Shown piece after piece: positions 11,891-58,727 of a DNA stretch of 58,727 bases. Numbering within the stretch: position 1 is the stretch's first letter; every line of letters starts with the position of its first letter. The translations under genes and the position numbers were made by a program. The stretch is taken from the NCBI GenBank assembly GCA_964575955.1, contig CAZNTG010000008.1, forward strand, positions 1 through 58,727. The letters are read 5' to 3'. The DNA comes from an uncultured Thermoproteaceae archaeon (GTDB taxonomy: Archaea > Thermoproteota > Thermoprotei > Thermoproteales > Thermocladiaceae). The notes below the pieces were generated by a model that was not told the DNA's origin, did no database searches, and saw only the letters and a list, made by a program, of their open reading frames with translations.

Positions 11891-11940
11891 TCAGCGTAGC
11901 GAGGCTTCATCAATATTTCAGAACGTGCAAATTTCATCAC
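11891..11940 (-). ncRNA. Box C/D sRNA
   Basis: Minus strand GTGATGA-aatttgcacgtt-CTGA-aata-TTGATGA-agcctcgctacg-CTGA; canonical 12-nt guides. Confidence 0.88.
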
Positions 11941-24555: not shown

Positions 24556-24615
24556 CACAAACAAGAAATAGATAAATTAGCTTTTAAATTTTCTTTAAGA
24601 AAGAACACTACCCGA

Positions 24616-24664
24616 ATGATGAAGGGTACCAAAACAGACAAATGAAGAATTCACGACGAGCTGA
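24616..24664 (+). ncRNA. Box C/D sRNA
   Basis: ATGATGA-12nt-CAGA-..ATGAAGA-12nt-CTGA. Confidence 0.78.
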
Positions 24665-24697
24665 AAAATAAAATTCTAAATACATCATAAATTAAAA

Positions 24698-24746
24698 ATG
24701 ATGAACAGTCCGGTAGCTGACAACTGATGAACGCTAGGTACGCTGA
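24698..24746 (+). ncRNA. Box C/D sRNA
   Basis: ATGATGA-acagtccggtag-CTGA-caa-CTGATGA-acgctaggtacg-CTGA. Confidence 0.88.
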
Positions 24747-25462
24747 ACAAACCTGCTAACAGCGATTATAGTAGGATCTATTGTCACAATGTTGAGAACT
24801 GACTAGAAAGACGCATGCACAAGACACCAGAACAATCATGACTTAGTCAAGAAGCTTGTCCTATACTATAGGCATACGGTTATCAAACTGAGTCTTTACA
24901 CATACCTTCCCATGCTTAGAAACTTCCCGATATATCTACATGAGCAAGATTGATGAGGATCTAATAATTGACTTTACGGGACACTGCGTAATAGAGAAGT
25001 TCATGAAGATGATTATCGAGAAGAAGATCTGTACGGGCTTGAGAGAAGTATACGAGAAGGTTAGACTAGGGAAAGTGAGAACTTATCACCAACATCGTCT
25101 CTCGAGTCCATACGTCTTGTTAACATGTTCATTGAGAAAAATCCTTGACCTAAAGTACAAGGTCCTGAATTACGTCTTGTGCACAAGAATAGGGTAATGA
25201 TTGGATATGTTCGCATGAGAAGATATATGATGTTCGGAGATAGACATCAATTATGAGTTTGTTCTTAGGAGATCAAGATTGTTATCCTTCTAGTCAGGTC
25301 AAGCTTCTTCTTGCAGACAGCTTCATTTTCACAGATCATTATCTTTCTCACATCTGATCCACGCATAAAGACCCTTCTAAACCTGACCCATTAACGTGGC
25401 TCGTGCTAGTCTCAACAATCACTCAAGAGCCTTTTAGTATGACTAAGGGCTGAGTCTGAAAT

Positions 25463-27210: not shown

Positions 27211-27388
27211 CAACAACAGATCACAAATTCTAAAATACTTCTCACAACCCTGAAAAATCTATTCTTAAAGCTTCGAGAATGAACATTTCTAAAACCTTAA
27301 AGAATAATTGCGTTGAGCACTCCACGTGCGACGTGTCCATTCTCTCGCTGGCTGTATCTTAACCATGTATAACCTTCAATAATTCTTT

Positions 27389-33569: not shown

Positions 33570-33940
33570 GATTTTGTAAGTCGATAGAAAGTTTTTGGAT
33601 ATGTGTAGTAGATAGTGAAGATATATGCATTGAAAGATTTGCAATATTGAAAGATCCGGAAAATAGTATAACATGTATATCTACTAGGCAGATTTCTGAA
33701 AAATGTTCAGGACCTTATAAAGCATTGATATTTGAGGAGACACCAATAGACATTGTAGGATTTCTATTAAAAGTATTGAAAGTATTAGCTGAAAATGATA
33801 TACCAATAATGGCGTATAGTACATATCAGAGAGATATAATCTTAGTACCTGCAAATAAAGTTGAAAAAGCAGTACAAGCTCTCAAAAACGCAGGATTTAT
33901 AGAGGTCAGCGACAGGCTGATTCTTCACAAATCAGGATAG
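33566..33940 (+). CDS. ACT-domain protein
   Basis: VGFLLKVLKVLAENDIPIMAYSTYQRDIILV. Confidence 0.8.
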   Translation: MRFCKSIESFWICVVDSEDICIERFAILKDPENSITCISTRQISEKCSGPYKALIFEETPIDIVGFLLKVLKVLAENDIPIMAYSTYQRDIILVPANKVEKAVQALKNAGFIEVSDRLILHKSG

Positions 33941-33964
33941 GTGCATCTCATCATATGTAGGTAT

Positions 33965-35613: not shown

Positions 35614-35961
35614 ACGCCTAAATGCTCACTACGTCATGCATCCTCAGATATGTACATAGCATACTGTAATTGATGTAAACACAAAGTCAGTTTAAGCAAT
35701 AGTCTTTGAGTTGTGTATAAAGGAATTGTCAATCACGTTGTCATTAGCTAGGAAGAGTTGCTGAGAGCTAACTCATGTTGATTTCCTCTCACTTGAGTTA
35801 TCATTATGGCGCCCTATTATAAACACTAGTAATAACTTAAATCTCTTATCTTAATTCTTAATTGCCGCTATATGTTGTGCTCAAGCAATATTTCTGATAG
35901 GCGCAGCACACTATGGAATTGCTGTGTCGGCTATAGTTTACTATAGATTAAAGCTGGGGTA

Positions 35962-36771
35962 TTATGAATATTTTATAAGAGTTAGAGTTTGGATAGTATG
36001 TTTAGTAGCATATGCTCTACCTGGGGGCATCTTTGCCTCAAGCTCCCGTATAACCAAGTCATCTTGAGTCATTAGGTAGTACACGTATCTTCTCAGTATT
36101 AGCTCTGGCAAGCTGCGTTGCGCTGTTACGTGGTTAACATATTGCCATGTCTTTACGAGGCTATTCACATGTTTGAGATATTTTGCAAGTGCTGTCTCGT
36201 CTCTTGTCCTAGCCTTGTTGACTATCAGGACAATGTTCTCAACTTCTCGATACTCCTTAAGTAACTGAACGTGTTTAGCGAAGTAGCTTAAGCATTCGCT
36301 AGTCTCCTCAGCCACGAATGCAATAACATCTGCAGCTGTGAGCACGGTATTTACAGGATCTACTATGCGACATGCAGGCATGTCAACGATCACATATGCT
36401 CCAAGTACCTTAGCGATCCTGCGAACCAACATACACAGCCTCTTCCAGTCAATTTTCGAAACCTCTTCAGGTCTAGCTTGACCTGCAGGTATGAGAACGA
36501 TGTTGTCCCTACCCTCAATGCCATGCAAGACGTCACGTAGCTTGCATTTGCCCAGGAGGTAGTCAAGTATACCATAGCTGTGCCTCCCTGGCCTCCTAAC
36601 AAACTCACCAATGGTCTCAAACAGTAGGTGTAGATAATCCATGTCTATGGATAGGTCAAGATAGACAACGGGATAACCATGTAAATCAGCGAATATTGTC
36701 GTCAATAGGCTGAGAGTTGTCTTGCCCGTACCACCCTTCTCACCACTGTAGATAGCTACAACCCTACCCAC
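35962..36771 (-). CDS. ParA/MinD-family ATPase
   Basis: GTG at 36771: GRVVAIYSGEKGGTGKTT, YLDL, IVDMP, IVNK. Confidence 0.85.
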   Translation of the reverse strand: MGRVVAIYSGEKGGTGKTTLSLLTTIFADLHGYPVVYLDLSIDMDYLHLLFETIGEFVRRPGRHSYGILDYLLGKCKLRDVLHGIEGRDNIVLIPAGQARPEEVSKIDWKRLCMLVRRIAKVLGAYVIVDMPACRIVDPVNTVLTAADVIAFVAEETSECLSYFAKHVQLLKEYREVENIVLIVNKARTRDETALAKYLKHVNSLVKTWQYVNHVTAQRSLPELILRRYVYYLMTQDDLVIRELEAKMPPGRAYATKHTIQTLTLIKYS

Positions 36772-44988: not shown

Positions 44989-45225
44989 ATGAGGCTAGTC
45001 GAGAAGATTGTCAAGGAGACACGTGCCAGAGCAATGATGAGCATCTTGACCAAGCTCATCGACCTGCTAAATGGCTTAGCAGCACTTACGCTGCTCGACA
45101 AGGATGTTGATACCACACTGAGGATCCTGGACATGCAGCATAGCCTAATCAAGATGCTGCAAGACAAGTGGACTCTCCTGCAAGAACTTGAGGACATGGA
45201 AGAGGACGAACAACCCCCATCCTGA
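44989..45225 (+). CDS. Small helical hypothetical protein
   Basis: Follows the coiled-coil gene closely. Confidence 0.55.
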   Translation: MRLVEKIVKETRARAMMSILTKLIDLLNGLAALTLLDKDVDTTLRILDMQHSLIKMLQDKWTLLQELEDMEEDEQPPS

Positions 45226-45348
45226 ACATCCATTCTTAAAGCTTTGAGAACGTCCATTCTTAACGTCTTAAGAATGGGGCTTGAGAAAGCCCACGGCCGT
45301 GTAGGACCATTCTTAAGGCTTTGAGAATGGAGGTTCAGGATGGGGGTT
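45212..45348. repeat. 39-bp inverted repeat enclosing three CCATTCTTAA-N4-TTRAGAA palindromes
   Basis: Arms 45212-45250 and 45310-45348 (4 mismatches); units at 45230, 45254 and 45307. Confidence 0.9.
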
Positions 45349-47872: not shown

Positions 47873-47920
47873 CCATTCTTAAAGTTTTGAGAAGACCATT
47901 CTTAAAGACGTTAAGAGTGG
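47873..47920. repeat. Two tandem CCATTCTTAA palindromic units
   Basis: CCATTCTTAAagttTTGAGAA and CCATTCTTAAagacgTTAAGAGTGG. Confidence 0.85.
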
Positions 47921-54677: not shown

Positions 54678-55895
54678 ATGCGCATAAAATCGGCTGTTGA
54701 AGTTCTGTCTCTCGAGCTTGAATCCTCACCTGAACTATATGATATATTTAGGAGGATTGTGGAAGCTAAGGTACGTGTTATATACTCAACAAAGATGTAC
54801 AATGTACCTACACTAGTCCACATGTACAAAAGTGGTGAACTATACGTTGATCCTGATCTCAAGCGTGAGTATACCTGGTCCATTGTCAAGGCTTCACGTT
54901 TCATCGAAAGTCTAATACTTGGACTTCCAATACCACCAATATTTGTCATCTACCTACATGATAGGGGGCTTGTCGTAGATGGTTTTCACAGACTTGAAAC
55001 TTTGAGGCTATTCTACAGTAATGAGCTTAAACTAAGGGGCATAGTACTGCGAGAGCTTGAGGATAAGGTCTACACAGAGCTGGATGAGAATCTTCGCAAT
55101 AGGCTAGATCGTACAGCTATTCCAGTAGTTGAAGTCCATGTAGAACCTCCAGATCCCTCTACCACAATGTTCGTGGTCTATGAAATATTCAGGAGGTTGA
55201 ACCTCGGCGCCAAGCCCTTAACCACCTTACAAGTAATTTTCTGTGGCCTACCTACACCTGCAGTGCGTGCAGTAAAGGAGCTTCTACAGGATGAGAATAT
55301 GCAGACACTGCTCAATCCGAGACTCTCAGAGACACGTAACATGATGGACAGGTATCTGGTTCTAATGCTCATGGTCTGCATATACTGGAACAGGCTGATG
55401 AACTTGACATCTGGGGGAAAGGTAGCACATGCTAGAGCAATAGCTAGATTCCTAAGAGCTTCCGAAGAAGAGGTCGCCAAGGTGAAGGAACGAGTTAAGG
55501 AACTTGCAGAACTTGCACTGAGGATAGGCCTGTCTCGTCGATACTTCCTCTTGACGACATACGGCCTCTCCCGCAGATATACAATCATATCGTCTACACT
55601 TTTCTTAGTGATAATGTATCTCATTCATGAACTTGAGTTACATCTAGGCAAGGATGTCCTCATCGAGCACAGGAGCACAGTACTACACTCAATAGAGAGA
55701 TTCTTCCGTGAGACAACTAGAAAGTTCGTGATAGATGATAGGGAGGTTGACCTAAAGACCTTAATTGCATACATTAGTCGGCAAGGTGGAGACAAGCTAC
55801 TCCACGTGCTCTACAACACATTTAAGCAACATGTGCTACACTCACTCAGCAGCGAAGAAAAGGACTTAAAAGATAGCTTCAAGAACTCTCTATAG
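54678..55895 (+). CDS. DUF262 (GmrSD-N/ParB-like) domain protein
   Basis: REYTW, FIESLILGLPIPPIF, VVDGFHRL, IFRRLNLGAKPL. Confidence 0.85.
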   Translation: MRIKSAVEVLSLELESSPELYDIFRRIVEAKVRVIYSTKMYNVPTLVHMYKSGELYVDPDLKREYTWSIVKASRFIESLILGLPIPPIFVIYLHDRGLVVDGFHRLETLRLFYSNELKLRGIVLRELEDKVYTELDENLRNRLDRTAIPVVEVHVEPPDPSTTMFVVYEIFRRLNLGAKPLTTLQVIFCGLPTPAVRAVKELLQDENMQTLLNPRLSETRNMMDRYLVLMLMVCIYWNRLMNLTSGGKVAHARAIARFLRASEEEVAKVKERVKELAELALRIGLSRRYFLLTTYGLSRRYTIISSTLFLVIMYLIHELELHLGKDVLIEHRSTVLHSIERFFRETTRKFVIDDREVDLKTLIAYISRQGGDKLLHVLYNTFKQHVLHSLSSEEKDLKDSFKNSL

Positions 55896-55911
55896 ACCGC
55901 CGATAATGGGG
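55855..55911 (+). repeat. Internally deleted inverted copy of the 47173-47291 promoter/leader
   Basis: 47 bp with 3 mismatches to revcomp of 47245-47291, followed by CCGATAATGGGG matching revcomp of 47173-47184. Confidence 0.85.
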
Positions 55912-55955
55912 GTTCCAGTAGGAGTAATTACTAAAGAGGTTTATGCATACTACTC

Positions 55956-56333
55956 TTGGATAATATGTCAAGCAGCGGTGTTAGGAAGATAGAGGATGAC
56001 ATTAGTAAGAAGCTTGAGGAGATTTACAAATTAATAAAGGACGTGCTTGAGCTTGTACAGTACACAATTGCTAAGTGGATGGAGATACAGTCAAAGTATG
56101 GTGAGGTTATCGATGTGTTGACAAGCCCCGACGAGTTTAGGAACTTTGTCAATAAACTGGACGATGCGTCAGCGGGGAAGCTTCTCAGGATGATAATGCA
56201 GATCTACATGATCGTACAGAAGATGACGAGGCTAAGCGATCTTAGTGAAGAGGAGCTTAAGAACTTGAAAAAAGATGTTGCCGAGCTATTAGAGAGAGTA
56301 CGGGAAGAACTTAAGACAAGGACAAGCTCGTAG
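55956..56333 (+). CDS. Helical hypothetical protein
   Basis: Amphipathic helical ORF. Confidence 0.65.
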   Translation: MDNMSSSGVRKIEDDISKKLEEIYKLIKDVLELVQYTIAKWMEIQSKYGEVIDVLTSPDEFRNFVNKLDDASAGKLLRMIMQIYMIVQKMTRLSDLSEEELKNLKKDVAELLERVREELKTRTSS

Positions 56334-56353
56334 AATGTTATGTCTCTCCAACA

Positions 56354-57094
56354 CTACACATGTGTCGAACCTAGCCTCTCCCTCTCAAGTACTTTCCAGC
56401 ACTTACAAAATATCTTGTGTACTATGTCGATTGTTCCCTCAATAATGTAAGATACTAGTGCTATTCTTGGTCTGCTAGCTGAAAGTGCTAGCTCATACAC
56501 CAACCTTCTCACTCTCCGTACATGCTTTATGACCCACTTGATACGTTTCTCGATGTCTCTCTTTGGTCGATCCTGTTCATAGTAGTAGTCATGTAGCTCT
56601 TCACCAATTCTATACATGAGTCCGATCCACCCAATCTTCTCATCCTTCTTCAAGATTCCCCTCTTCCTTAAACTACGCAGATGTTCTAATACTCTGTCCA
56701 CGACAATTCTTGTCACTCTATGTCCAGTCGGTACGATGCCCCACAGTAGTGTTGAGAGAGCTTTCACACTATCAAGCACTGCTCTCCAAGCTTCTTCACA
56801 AGCTTCGTCGAGCATACCCTCCTGCAACAGCTTTACCGCCTTTTCAATAGTTGAGCAAGCCCTCTCTGCATACCTCACGGCGGGTAGTGAGGAACGCTCA
56901 ACATCACCTCTACGTCGAAGCTCCACAGGAGGAGCCGTGTAGATTGGCCTGACAGCTGAGATAACACGTGGAAAGGCTAGTTGACGACAGAGAAGCTCGC
57001 TAAGCACAACACCTGGAAACTCTGCAACAACCCTAGCATCAGACACAAGCACACTAGCCCCTCCACGAGTCTCCACACTGGAGGACACACCCAT
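56354..57094 (-). CDS. PaREP1/HEPN-superfamily protein
   Basis: ACEEAWRAV..VKAL, H, ELHDYYYE. Confidence 0.75.
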   Translation of the reverse strand: MGVSSSVETRGGASVLVSDARVVAEFPGVVLSELLCRQLAFPRVISAVRPIYTAPPVELRRRGDVERSSLPAVRYAERACSTIEKAVKLLQEGMLDEACEEAWRAVLDSVKALSTLLWGIVPTGHRVTRIVVDRVLEHLRSLRKRGILKKDEKIGWIGLMYRIGEELHDYYYEQDRPKRDIEKRIKWVIKHVRRVRRLVYELALSASRPRIALVSYIIEGTIDIVHKIFCKCWKVLERERLGSTHV

Positions 57095-57182
57095 ACTCCA
57101 CGTGTGACACAGCTAATAATACATGTCGATCCCCGCACATACACACGTGACCCCCTCCCCATCCCGAAACATCTTGAAAAAA

Positions 57183-57272
57183 ACCCCGCGGCGGGACCCC
57201 CCGGGGCGGCCCAACGAGAACCCACTCACTGCTCCGTGATGAAGGACTTTGTGGCTGATCCCGCCGCGGGGC
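57183..57272 (-). ncRNA. Candidate ~90-nt stable RNA closed by a 13-14 bp GC stem
   Basis: CCCCGCGGCGGGA/TCCCGCCGCGGGG; on the minus strand ATATTAAC lies ~30 nt upstream and a T7 run lies immediately downstream. Confidence 0.6.
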
Positions 57273-57360
57273 TGTGAAAAATCTTCACATACATGTTAAT
57301 ATGTGCCTAGGCTGGTAGACATGGCACATCTATCAGTATCCTGAACCTTGCCACCCCACT

Positions 57361-58074
57361 CTACGAGACACTCCACCTCCCCCTTCCCAGTGGCTCCTCT
57401 CTTCTAATACCTAGCCTACGAACATCTTCCTGGATCTTTCTGACCTCGCTGTACAGCTCATCTCCAAGTACATCCCTAAGAGCATCTTCGTAGGACATCT
57501 CAGGGTATAGACCGAGAAGTTTCAAGACGTCTCTCAGAGACATGTCGAGCAGAAGAACCTTCTTATCATCATCTAGGTTAAGCAGATCGTATACCAGGTC
57601 CCTAATTTCTAGACCGTAGATCTTGGCTAGGTTATGTAGCCTACGAACGTAGTCTTCACATACCTCGGAGATGCCATACTCATCACATAGAGCAACAATC
57701 TTCTTCACAATGTCCGACCTAGAGAACCGGTCGTGTTCTAGTCTTAGCGTGACAACATCCTCATCACATGCATGTACTTTCACGTCCGTGATATCTCTAA
57801 GATGACGTGATATATCGTGGTCATACGGTCCATACTTGTATATCTTGAAGTTGAATAGCTCAACCATCGGACTAATCTCAAGCTTTGAACCATCTCTCGT
57901 CAACGTGGCAGCACACAGAAGCTTCTGTATGGAAGTCTCATTGACAGTCTTCAGAAGCAGGATAGCAAGCTCAGTAAACAACCTACGCAGCCTAGCCTTA
58001 ACATCCTCAGGCAAACCCCTAACACGCCCAAACAAGACAACCTCCACCACACACCGAGCTAATAAACATACCAT
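57361..58074 (-). CDS. Panacea/SocA (DUF4065)-like antitoxin-domain protein
   Basis: IQKLL...FKIYKYGPYDHDI. Confidence 0.55.
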   Translation of the reverse strand: MVCLLARCVVEVVLFGRVRGLPEDVKARLRRLFTELAILLLKTVNETSIQKLLCAATLTRDGSKLEISPMVELFNFKIYKYGPYDHDISRHLRDITDVKVHACDEDVVTLRLEHDRFSRSDIVKKIVALCDEYGISEVCEDYVRRLHNLAKIYGLEIRDLVYDLLNLDDDKKVLLLDMSLRDVLKLLGLYPEMSYEDALRDVLGDELYSEVRKIQEDVRRLGIRREEPLGRGRWSVS

Positions 58075-58100
58075 TCACCTAAAAAGCCTGACCCCCGTGA

Positions 58101-58133
58101 CCCCCTTCTCCTCATCTCGATGACCCTCCTCAT
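58101..58133. repeat. 33-bp direct repeat of 47114-47146
   Basis: CCCCCTTCTCCTCATCTCGATGAyCCTCyTCAT, 2 mismatches. Confidence 0.85.
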
Positions 58134-58147
58134 CTTGGATATTCCCC

Positions 58148-58175
58148 GAACGTCCATTCTTAACGTCTTTAAGAG
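58148..58175. repeat. Sixth CCATTCTTAA palindromic unit
   Basis: GAACGTCCATTCTTAACGTCTT is identical to 45248-45269. Confidence 0.85.
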
Positions 58176-58236
58176 TTAGTTGTAATTTCTGGGGTTCGTG
58201 TTTTATTTATATTTTCCTCCTTTTCTTGCCTTTTCT

Positions 58237-58488
58237 GTGAGTTGGAGGTTAGTTGTGAAGAGGTCATTTATTAGAGATTTAAAAGGGCTTGACCCAAATG
58301 TTAGGGATAGGATAATTGAGGCTATTGATGAGATTGTGAGAAATCCATACGTGGGAAAGAAGCTTGACAATTTTTACAGTTGGAGAGTTGGTGATTACCG
58401 TATCATCTATACCATAGATGAGGAGAGGCGTACAGTTGTGCTACTGTGGGTTGGTCATAGAAGATCCATCTACAGGAGATTGAGATAG
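58237..58488 (+). CDS. relE: RelE/ParE-family toxin
   Basis: GKKL..YSWRVGDYRIIY.ID...VGHRRSIY; GTG at 58237. Confidence 0.92.
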   Translation: MSWRLVVKRSFIRDLKGLDPNVRDRIIEAIDEIVRNPYVGKKLDNFYSWRVGDYRIIYTIDEERRTVVLLWVGHRRSIYRRLR

Positions 58489-58680
58489 CTAGTAGTCCTC
58501 CTCCACAAGCTTCTTGAGATCTCTCACACTTTCTATAGACACCTCCTCTTCCCGCAACCTCCTCTCCAACTCAGGCCTAAGCAACTCAACCTCCAGCCTA
58601 TCAATGAGATCTATAATCTCCTCAGCATTCCTCAATATCCTATTCACAATACTGTAAATCGCATCAACATCCAGAGACAT
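58489..58680 (-). CDS. Small acidic protein, possible RelB-like antitoxin
   Basis: 63 aa, acidic C-terminus EEEVSIESVRDLKKLVEE; convergent with relE. Confidence 0.45.
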   Translation of the reverse strand: MSLDVDAIYSIVNRILRNAEEIIDLIDRLEVELLRPELERRLREEEVSIESVRDLKKLVEEDY

Positions 58681-58727
58681 CAAGAACAATAATAACACCA
58701 AGACCATAATAGGCATTACGCCCAAGA

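Follow-up and report, generated by a model that had tools for sequence, protein, structure and literature searches.

A probable clamped box C/D sRNA-like gene on acquired DNA of an uncultured Thermoproteaceae archaeon

The 266-nucleotide (nt) gap separating two minus-strand genes (57361-58074 and 56354-57094) in a contig of an uncultured Thermoproteaceae archaeon holds an 88-nt element closed by a long and perfect stem, and the question raised by this locus is what kind of RNA such an element would encode, and on which strand. The stretch analyzed, hereafter “the window”, is the entire contig C8 (58,727 nt; CAZNTG010000008.1) of the archaeal host assembly G000, which comprises 1.52 Mb in 15 contigs. 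An earlier note on this DNA had proposed a stem-closed RNA containing a C/D-box unit, and had considered three roles for it, namely an element-encoded methylation guide, an antisense decoy of a host C/D small RNA (sRNA), or an RNA antitoxin for the flanking PaREP1 and Panacea genes. Box C/D guides are usually regarded as short, unclamped housekeeping RNAs of the host. We read the plus strand of the element, with moderate confidence, as a clamped box C/D sRNA-like gene residing on acquired DNA, a reading derived from sequence comparison.

The stem pairs all 13 positions of 57184-57196 with 57259-57271, at 92% guanine + cytosine (G+C), and encloses 62 nt; the perfect 13-bp, G+C-rich terminal stem described in the earlier note is thus confirmed, and so is its GTGATGA-12-nt-CTGA motif at 57236-57258 of the plus strand (GTGATGA at 57236-57242, 12 nt at 57243-57254 and CTGA at 57255-57258). 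A unit of this type appeared once in 200,000 shuffles of the 62-nt window loop, both strands being counted. The stem-closed C/D unit was borne out and extended by a homolog in genome G002, a sister species of the same genus, although the motif proved to be not a lone unit but the C'/D half of a larger core with degenerate C and D' boxes. This C/D core, of about 47 nt, consists of a C-box remnant, a D' guide, a degenerate D' box, a short spacer, a perfect C' box, a 12-nt D guide and a perfect D box. Degenerate internal boxes are common among archaeal box C/D sRNAs. Regarding membership of that class, the element carries the CUGA D box at its 3' end and internal D'/C' boxes with guides of approximately 12 nt, the D' box being degenerate. 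Its features, given with reference to the G002 copy and to two environmental alleles described below, are the following:

57177-57183, minus strand: run of seven A adjoining the stem (T7 on the minus strand), which may serve a minus-strand transcript as an archaeal oligo-T terminator
57184-57196, plus strand: 5' arm of the clamp, CCCCGCGGCGGGA, from the sequence, the inverted-repeat search and the G002 alignment
57197-57212, plus strand: 16-nt G+C-rich insert from the 5' arm to the C box, from the sequence, with no allele substitution within it
57212-57219, plus strand: C-box remnant, CAACGAGA, 3 nt shorter than the AUGAUGA region of G002, from the alignments to G002 and to Rfam sR9
57218-57229, plus strand: D' guide, assigned by homology to its 12-nt counterpart in G002, with which it has ACCCAC in common
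57229-57235, plus strand: degenerate D' box (CUGC/UGCU) and spacer of 2-3 nt, where G002 has CGAU and CC
57236-57242, plus strand: C' box GUGAUGA, perfect consensus, the same in the alleles and GUGAGGA in G002
57243-57254, plus strand: D guide, AGGACUUUGUGG, 12 nt, orphan, with no genomic complement except itself
57255-57258, plus strand: D box CUGA, touching the 3' arm, the same in G002 and in the alleles
57259-57271, plus strand: 3' arm of the clamp, TCCCGCCGCGGGG, from the sequence and the G002 alignment
57272-57341, no strand assigned: right flank, homologous to the right flank of G002, holding the minus-strand TATA-like ATATTAA

Perfect inverted repeats of at least 13 nt with a gap of 3-120 nt are represented in the 1.52-Mb genome by 43 overlapping seeds at about 20 places, and the element stem is the sole one of that class above 62% G+C. 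When folding was compared with 200 shuffles, both strands beat all of them (z of -3.43 for the plus and -3.68 for the minus strand), the predicted fold energies being -48.2 and -52.0 kcal/mol, respectively; at 75-85 °C the terminal stem alone is predicted to be stable. The complementarity of the flanks amounts to at most 4-9 nt in 36 host sRNAs, and to 13 nt in the window copy and 15 nt in the G002 copy. Other RNA classes were discarded. ARAGORN found no transfer RNA (tRNA) gene in the window and no Rfam family matches the element at its gathering score, so neither tRNA, nor 5S ribosomal RNA (rRNA), nor any other curated RNA family is recognized, as the earlier note had anticipated for the first two. 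On inspection, an H/ACA-like RNA was rejected for lack of an ACA and because a D box set against the stem leaves no 3' guide pocket, and a split-tRNA leader or bulge-helix-bulge site was rejected on account of a perfect stem with no bulges.

The homolog carries much of the argument. A covariance model built from the single window sequence and its stem was searched against 120 genomes of the class, and gave a single strong match (G002:C107:2468-2558; 48.5 bits, E = 4e-5) with a full-length alignment, situated on a contig of 4144 nt. Its order is 5' arm, G+C-rich insert, AUGAUGA, 12 nt, CGAU, CC, GUGAGGA, 12 nt, CUGA and 3' arm, which is a full archaeal box C/D sRNA layout with the guides at the canonical 12 nt. 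Since the query itself has no canonical C box, the model cannot have imposed the AUGAUGA of G002. Shuffling the G002 loop 200,000 times never produced the full C/D layout, the plus strand of this copy is matched end to end by eight Rfam C/D families (the best being sR1, at 24.1 bits), and the D box adjoins the 3' arm identically in G002 and in the window, on the same strand. All 12 stem pairs of the window/G002 alignment are kept, one of them through a double change from G-C to A-U; the perfect flank complementarity of G002 extends to 15 nt, 12 pairs of which are in the model. The alignment contains indels of 1, 3 and 1 nt, which ruled out a coding reading of the element.

Further evidence was provided by environmental alleles, taken from contigs of two DNA sequencing runs, X1 and X2, which belong to different studies; their depths are 2.6 and 4.6, single contigs below a depth of 5 calling for caution and the agreement between the two runs easing that concern. 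The X2 allele has one extra G in the 5' arm, and the X1 allele a C inserted behind 57259, a loose end of X2 showing the same longer 3' arm; we read both changes as a compensating lengthening of the stem by one pair. Five substitutions fall within the element, four of them seen in both runs: two in the D' guide (57223 and 57226) and three in the D guide (57246, 57252 and 57253), with none in the boxes, spacer, insert or arms, the guide segments being those defined by homology with G002. The chance of all five lying in the 24 guide nt is (24/88)^5 = 0.0015, or (24/62)^5 = 0.009 when the loop alone is considered. In no fold tried do the five substitutions compensate one another. Because the stem pairs are kept with compensating changes and the substitutions are confined to the guides, the boxes and the clamp appear constrained and the guides do not. 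Lui et al. (2018; PMC6009581) describe the guides of ordinary sRNA families as their most conserved part; conservation is reversed in the element, the scaffold being kept while the guides drift.

Comparison with the sRNAs of the host places the element close to them in form. At least 36 canonical box C/D sRNA genes were detected genome-wide with a strict pattern, and four lie in the A+T-rich part of the window, three of them found by the strict pattern and one by Rfam:

11891-11940, minus strand: canonical host C/D sRNA
24613-24665, plus strand: canonical host C/D sRNA
24694-24748, plus strand: canonical host C/D sRNA, also delimited as 24698-24746
33906-33954, minus strand: canonical host C/D sRNA

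In a permissive Rfam scan the best match of the element was the C/D family sR9, on the plus strand and end to end, at 23.1 bits versus a gathering score of 36, the C'/D half of the window copy aligning well and the C/D' half poorly. As a control, the host sRNAs 24613-24665 and 24694-24748 score 20-27 bits, below every gathering score, and none of the canonical C/D sRNAs of the host reaches one. At 23-24 bits, below threshold, the window and G002 copies score the same as the canonical host sRNAs, and therefore the silence of Rfam at the gathering threshold is uninformative in this lineage; the comparison with Rfam proposed in the earlier note cannot decide the matter. Like canonical archaeal box C/D sRNAs (Rfam sR1, sR5, sR9 and others, all sub-threshold), the element presents C, 12 nt, D', 2-3 nt, C', 12 nt and D on one strand, with perfect C' and D boxes in the window, a perfect C box in G002 and Rfam bits equal to those of the host sRNAs. 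Unlike them, its core sits in a 13-bp G+C stem with a 16-nt insert, the window copy has a defective C box, conservation is lowest in the guides, which match neither rRNA nor tRNA, and the element lies on acquired DNA of different G+C content.

The host also encodes the corresponding machinery, with genes for Nop5, fibrillarin and two L7Ae-family proteins. If the plus strand is transcribed, the clamp, or else an alternative inner helix, would keep the transcript closed at high temperature. The insert positions 57199-57209 copy the 5' arm at 10 of 11 positions and offer an alternative pairing partner for the 3' arm; taking window and G002 together, 19 of 22 cells of this inner helix are paired (including a G-U in G002) versus 48-69% in slid controls, a comparison of limited weight because the sequence is so G+C-rich. 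Such a helix would possibly set the stem right beside both terminal boxes, as in ordinary sRNAs. The host L7Ae, Nop5 and fibrillarin would then probably bind the RNA as they would an ordinary sRNA, and any methylation would be directed by two guides that have no conserved cellular target and change faster than the rest of the molecule.

A clamped guide of similar design is found in G043, a genome from another genus of the same family, where two weak model matches (27.5 and 24.1 bits) are copies of one unit (L035 1501-1589 and L033); the repeated unit spans about 240 nt (L035 1440-1640) and occurs on two contigs. It comprises a C/D sRNA with all four boxes near consensus atop a long interrupted G+C stem, and its D' guide matches the small-subunit (SSU) rRNA over 11 contiguous nt, so that by its sequence it looks like a working cellular guide. 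A long closing stem is accordingly compatible with guide function in this family. The G043 unit is like the window element in having a C/D core on a long G+C stem with GGGCGG just before the C box, and unlike it in its near-consensus boxes, its rRNA match and its longer, interrupted stem; homology between the two is not established. TTAATAAAC motifs lie on both sides of the G043 unit.

Several observations weigh against the plus-strand C/D gene. The window copy has CAACGAGA near its 5' end in place of a C box of the form RUGAUGA and, with no proper C box and a degenerate D', a standard terminal kink-turn (K-turn) is doubtful there. A hidden Markov model built from 36 host sRNAs matches only the C'-D half (E = 4.2) and misses G002; it also misses the G043 positive control, which renders this test uninformative. 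RNAalifold, with two sequences, proposed helices on both strands and none of the internal ones is backed by covariation, two sequences being too few to support them. The family is moreover small, consisting of two genomes plus two low-depth environmental alleles. A second model (R2), built from the window and G002 sequences, was run on 31 genomes of the family and on 29 of the sister family f2. It yielded no additional strong member; f2 contributed four single weak matches (24-25 bits), with multiple copies in none of its 29 genomes. When the host genome and 40 relatives were searched with BLAST, the element retrieved only itself, and plasmid and phage collections gave no match. The exact C'-guide-D pattern was absent from genome contigs and from viral contigs, the latter also lacking the other exact patterns; a pattern of box plus arm hit metagenome contigs once, within a bacterial outer-membrane protein gene, and a 20-mer of the insert hit two planctomycete assemblies, with no R2 match at the site of any of these hits. 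The window/G002 consensus pattern recovered one record among genome contigs (L044), which is the position of the G002 copy itself, and hence no new copy.

The lack of a recognizable target also counts against that reading. No SSU or large-subunit (LSU) rRNA gene was found in the 94.7%-complete host assembly, and the guides were therefore compared with 46 host tRNAs and with SSU and LSU rRNAs taken from four family members whose genomes are complete or nearly so. The longest contiguous complementarity was 7 nt for the D guide and 8 nt for the D' guide of the window, and 8 and 7 nt for the guides of G002; this is shuffle level, and no target was found in that set for either copy. For reference, at least nine contiguous pairs including the fifth position were obtained for 21 of 65 host guides versus 8 of 65 shuffled ones. 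The complement of the D-guide 12-mer occurs nowhere else in the genome, which gave six further one-mismatch matches versus 3.8 expected at up to one mismatch, and the acquired segment holds nothing with fewer than two mismatches to either guide. As far as can be tested, the two candidate guides are orphans. The methylation guide suggested in the earlier note is the best fit in form, with the reservation that its C box is defective and its best matches stay at the shuffle level of 7-8 nt. For an antisense decoy directed at a host C/D sRNA no partner was found, the 12-mer being present once in the genome, as itself.

Transcription signals, finally, are better on the minus strand, where a TATA-like box is conserved in G002 together with some 70 nt of surrounding sequence, while the plus-strand upstream region is not. 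Both signals listed in the earlier note are in place: ATATTAA occupies 57302 down to 57296, preceding the stem base by 25-31 nt, and seven T follow directly after the stem, from 57183 down to 57177. ATATACTAA stands in G002 at the same offset as ATATTAA in the window, and the right flanks of the two copies reach a global alignment score of 45, which none of 500 shuffles attains (their mean being 21.3 and their maximum 39), whereas the similarity of the left flanks, upstream on the plus strand, is not significant (190 of 500 shuffles). A more permissive local alignment also pairs a more distant, AATAA-rich upstream stretch that forms, in G002, a good TATA-like box about 40 nt before the stem. 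It is thus conceivable, if rather unlikely in our view, that the functional product is a stem-closed minus-strand RNA of about 95 nt, started at the stem base from the TATA-like box and ended at the T7. Its loop would be the exact antisense of the C/D core, and could mask or titrate the plus-strand RNA or a related guide, or act elsewhere. Besides the box and T7, the homology of that one 70-nt flank and its slightly better fold (-52.0 vs. -48.2 kcal/mol) speak for such an RNA, as does the antisense share of 39% of reads reported for the inverted-repeat-flanked sRNA elements of Pyrobaculum calidifontis in PMC6009581 (Lui et al., 2018). On the other hand, the conserved and improbable C/D layout has meaning on the plus strand only; the T run, reduced to six in an environmental allele, is not kept in G002, which has only a T-rich tract there and its first T4 about 40 nt further; no host sRNA has the complementary guide; and the inner-helix G-U of G002 would be a C-A mismatch on the minus strand. 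The box layout favors the plus strand and the transcription signals favor the minus strand, and both may be transcribed.

Among published systems, the nearest description found is that of the “MITE-like elements resembling sRNAs” of P. calidifontis (MITE, miniature inverted-repeat transposable element), with which our element could be compared by description. In these elements, conserved inverted repeats flank the C/D-like cores, the internal boxes are degenerate and the guides are orphan; the elements lie in unstable regions with one locus very highly expressed, and number 15 copies with imperfect repeats (Lui et al., 2018, NAR, PMC6009581). On that description, both have inverted repeats flanking C/D boxes, some degenerate boxes, orphan or poorly conserved guides and a variable region, and the antisense transcription reported for the former is plausible for the window element; on the same description, the latter differs in being single-copy instead of many-copy, in its perfect repeats and in its location on an acquired segment. 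No sequence likeness emerged in the 29 f2 genomes, the presence of P. calidifontis among them not being confirmed. A limited literature search found no published C/D sRNA on archaeal viruses, plasmids or integrated elements.

This likeness brings in another possibility, that a C/D sRNA gave rise to a MITE-like module, mobile now or in the past and flanked by inverted repeats, which is decaying in this genome and functionless today; we consider it improbable, though not negligible. The architecture matches the account of the P. calidifontis elements in PMC6009581, the window C box is 3 nt short, and the element lies on different sides of a shared 237-amino acid (aa) gene in the two genomes. It is opposed by the presence of one copy each in G000 and in G002 (metagenome assemblies can collapse repeats), by the absence of any multi-copy match in the 29 f2 genomes, by the lack of adjacent target-site duplications, and by substitutions that spare boxes, insert and stem, unlike neutral decay. 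The sole direct repeat flanking the element measures 24 nt (57103-57126 and 57273-57296; 71% alike), its right copy starting directly behind the 3' arm and its left copy being separated from the 5' arm by 58 nt; a repeat so weak and so unevenly placed does not qualify as a target-site duplication.

The DNA that carries the element, in turn, differs from the rest of the host genome. The latter has 32-35% G+C, and the window from about 36 kb to the contig end 42-52%; the step, from approximately 31% to 42-52%, is situated at 35900-36100, the richer part covers 36000-58727 and its other boundary is outside the window. Genes for ParA-like, KaiC-like and ParB_N proteins, a DinG-type helicase, a Cas4-like nuclease, a DUF262/NsnA-like protein, and ParE-like and PaREP1/HEPN proteins are found in it. 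Given the jump in G+C and this content of partition, defense and toxin-antitoxin genes, the richer segment is horizontally acquired accessory or defense DNA, and looks like an integrated plasmid-like or defense segment. ARAGORN found no tRNA gene at the G+C junction in the window.

Other features of this segment are recorded here in their own right. A palindromic motif, CCATTCTTAA ... TTAAGAATGG, is clustered at 45212-45348, 47873-47920 and 58154-58180 of the window, and is also present at 27259; the clusters in the acquired segment are intergenic, one of them lying where the 237-aa gene and the ParE-like gene have their divergent promoters, and the motif occurs as well on the G002 contig with the RNA homolog (L040 2864-2920). 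It is probably an operator for a regulator encoded by the acquired element. A loose end of run X1 at 58148 bears the 45218-type version of the palindrome, which suggests a different arrangement in a co-occurring strain. One X1 contig (9.5 kb, depth 22) connects 55901 to 58133 on opposite strands, and a weak 25-nt inverted repeat (76% complementary) stands at 55840-55864 and 58218-58242; in view of both, part of the population may carry, inverted or differently arranged, the 2.2-kb block that comprises a 125-aa open reading frame (ORF), the HEPN gene, the RNA and the 237-aa gene.

The two genes next to the element are the following:

57361-58074, minus strand: gene A, 237 aa, the sole protein gene common to the window and the G002 RNA contig
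56354-57094, minus strand: PaREP1/HEPN-family gene (Pfam PaREP1 26.4 bits and HEPN 22.9 bits, both barely above the cut-offs)

Of the names given to them by the earlier note, PaREP1/HEPN is upheld by Pfam, and Panacea comes down to a protein-atlas lead: the atlas puts gene A near SocA/Panacea-like clusters (0.92; structure TM of about 0.5), so that gene A is possibly SocA/Panacea-like, a lead and not a test. Gene A has one other relative among 5.8 billion clustered proteins and no Pfam family at E ≤ 0.01, and its predicted fold (pLDDT 69) has no match in the PDB (best E 0.69). Its homolog on the G002 contig is 63% identical, and that contig has nothing else in common with the host genome besides this gene and the RNA (BLASTN, TBLASTX). 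In G002 and G026 (L016 2-1512; L017 1465-2779), the gene A homologs are directly followed by a zinc-ribbon gene with an overlap of a few bases; in the window that place is occupied by the RNA and then the HEPN gene, to which the zinc-ribbon proteins are unrelated, and in G002 the RNA lies on the opposite side of gene A, beyond an unrelated 246-aa ORF. This swapping of partners agrees with an antitoxin-like gene whose toxins change. The PaREP1-like protein has no homolog at E ≤ 1e-5 in 61 other genomes of the order, the PaREP1 table rows of PMC3388794 contain nothing on such an RNA, and a search for related loci through either flanking protein gave nothing useful. The PaREP1/HEPN gene has its own TATA-like box (57120 down to 57113). 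The regions upstream of it (57096-57163) and of gene A (58042-58113) are alike, with two families of direct repeats (71-78%) about 948 nt apart, which suggests duplicated promoter or leader modules.

The position between two same-strand genes, with the T7 behind the stem, would also suit a mere terminator or insulator separating the 237-aa gene from the PaREP1/HEPN gene on the minus strand, the more so as the latter has a TATA-like box of its own and an upstream region resembling that of its neighbor. We nonetheless hold this to be very unlikely: the loop has 62 nt and conserved C/D boxes, a terminator scan (loops of 3-8 nt) returned no site in 56000-58727, a T5 run already precedes the stem on the minus strand (57281 down to 57277), and the G002 homolog does not follow the 237-aa gene. 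Archaeal termination, besides, requires no hairpin.

A role in conflict can be imagined from the same surroundings. A 2'-O-methyl group prevents metal-independent RNA cleavage, and by blocking cleavage the RNA could act as an immunity or antitoxin factor: with its fast-changing guides it would direct the 2'-O-methylation of a specific conflict RNA through the host L7Ae, Nop5 and fibrillarin, with the antisense RNA from the convergent minus-strand promoter as off-switch, for instance at the cleavage site of the HEPN/PaREP1 RNase, or of a toxin paired with the 237-aa antitoxin-like gene. We consider such RNA-guided immunity highly improbable. The RNA antitoxin for PaREP1/Panacea put forward in the earlier note obtained no direct support, the element being linked to the 237-aa gene in two genomes, on different sides.

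A last alternative, now close to refuted, is that of a single-unit relative of the TIGR stem-loop guide RNAs, accompanied by a nearby solo Nop-domain (Tas-like) protein. TIGR systems whose stem-loop units combine dual spacers with motifs like those of box C/D have been described from viruses and mobile DNA (Faure et al., 2025, PMC12045711); set beside that description, the element shares a stem-closed dual-guide RNA, a location on mobile DNA and an evolutionary tie to box C/D, and departs from it in having no array and no adjacent Nop-domain protein, and in its box motifs and guide lengths, since it bears classical K-turn boxes (RUGAUGA and CUGA) with 12-nt guides and not TIGR motifs. The ORF 55956-56333 (125 aa) does have a weak match to Pfam Nop (E = 0.029, 14.3 bits, cut-off 25.4); a six-frame Nop search of the genome, however, finds only the host Nop5, the predicted helical bundle of this ORF gave nothing specific against the PDB, the folds of the 125-aa ORF and the 237-aa gene have no PDB match at E ≤ 0.001, with no Nop5 or Tas chain among the matches listed, and the Nop match is noise.

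For the clamped C/D sRNA-like gene, then, the pattern is opposite to the usual one: boxes, clamp and insert are kept and the guides drift, in a gene that travels with toxin-antitoxin and defense genes. At the level of annotation, the Rfam gathering thresholds overlook the C/D sRNAs of this lineage, including four canonical ones in the window. If expressed and bound by L7Ae, the element would rank as a rare example of a C/D RNA borne on a mobile element beyond the one Pyrobaculum genome from which inverted-repeat-flanked sRNA elements are described and, if this holds true, it would give a handle on the origin and spread of new guide RNAs in hyperthermophiles.

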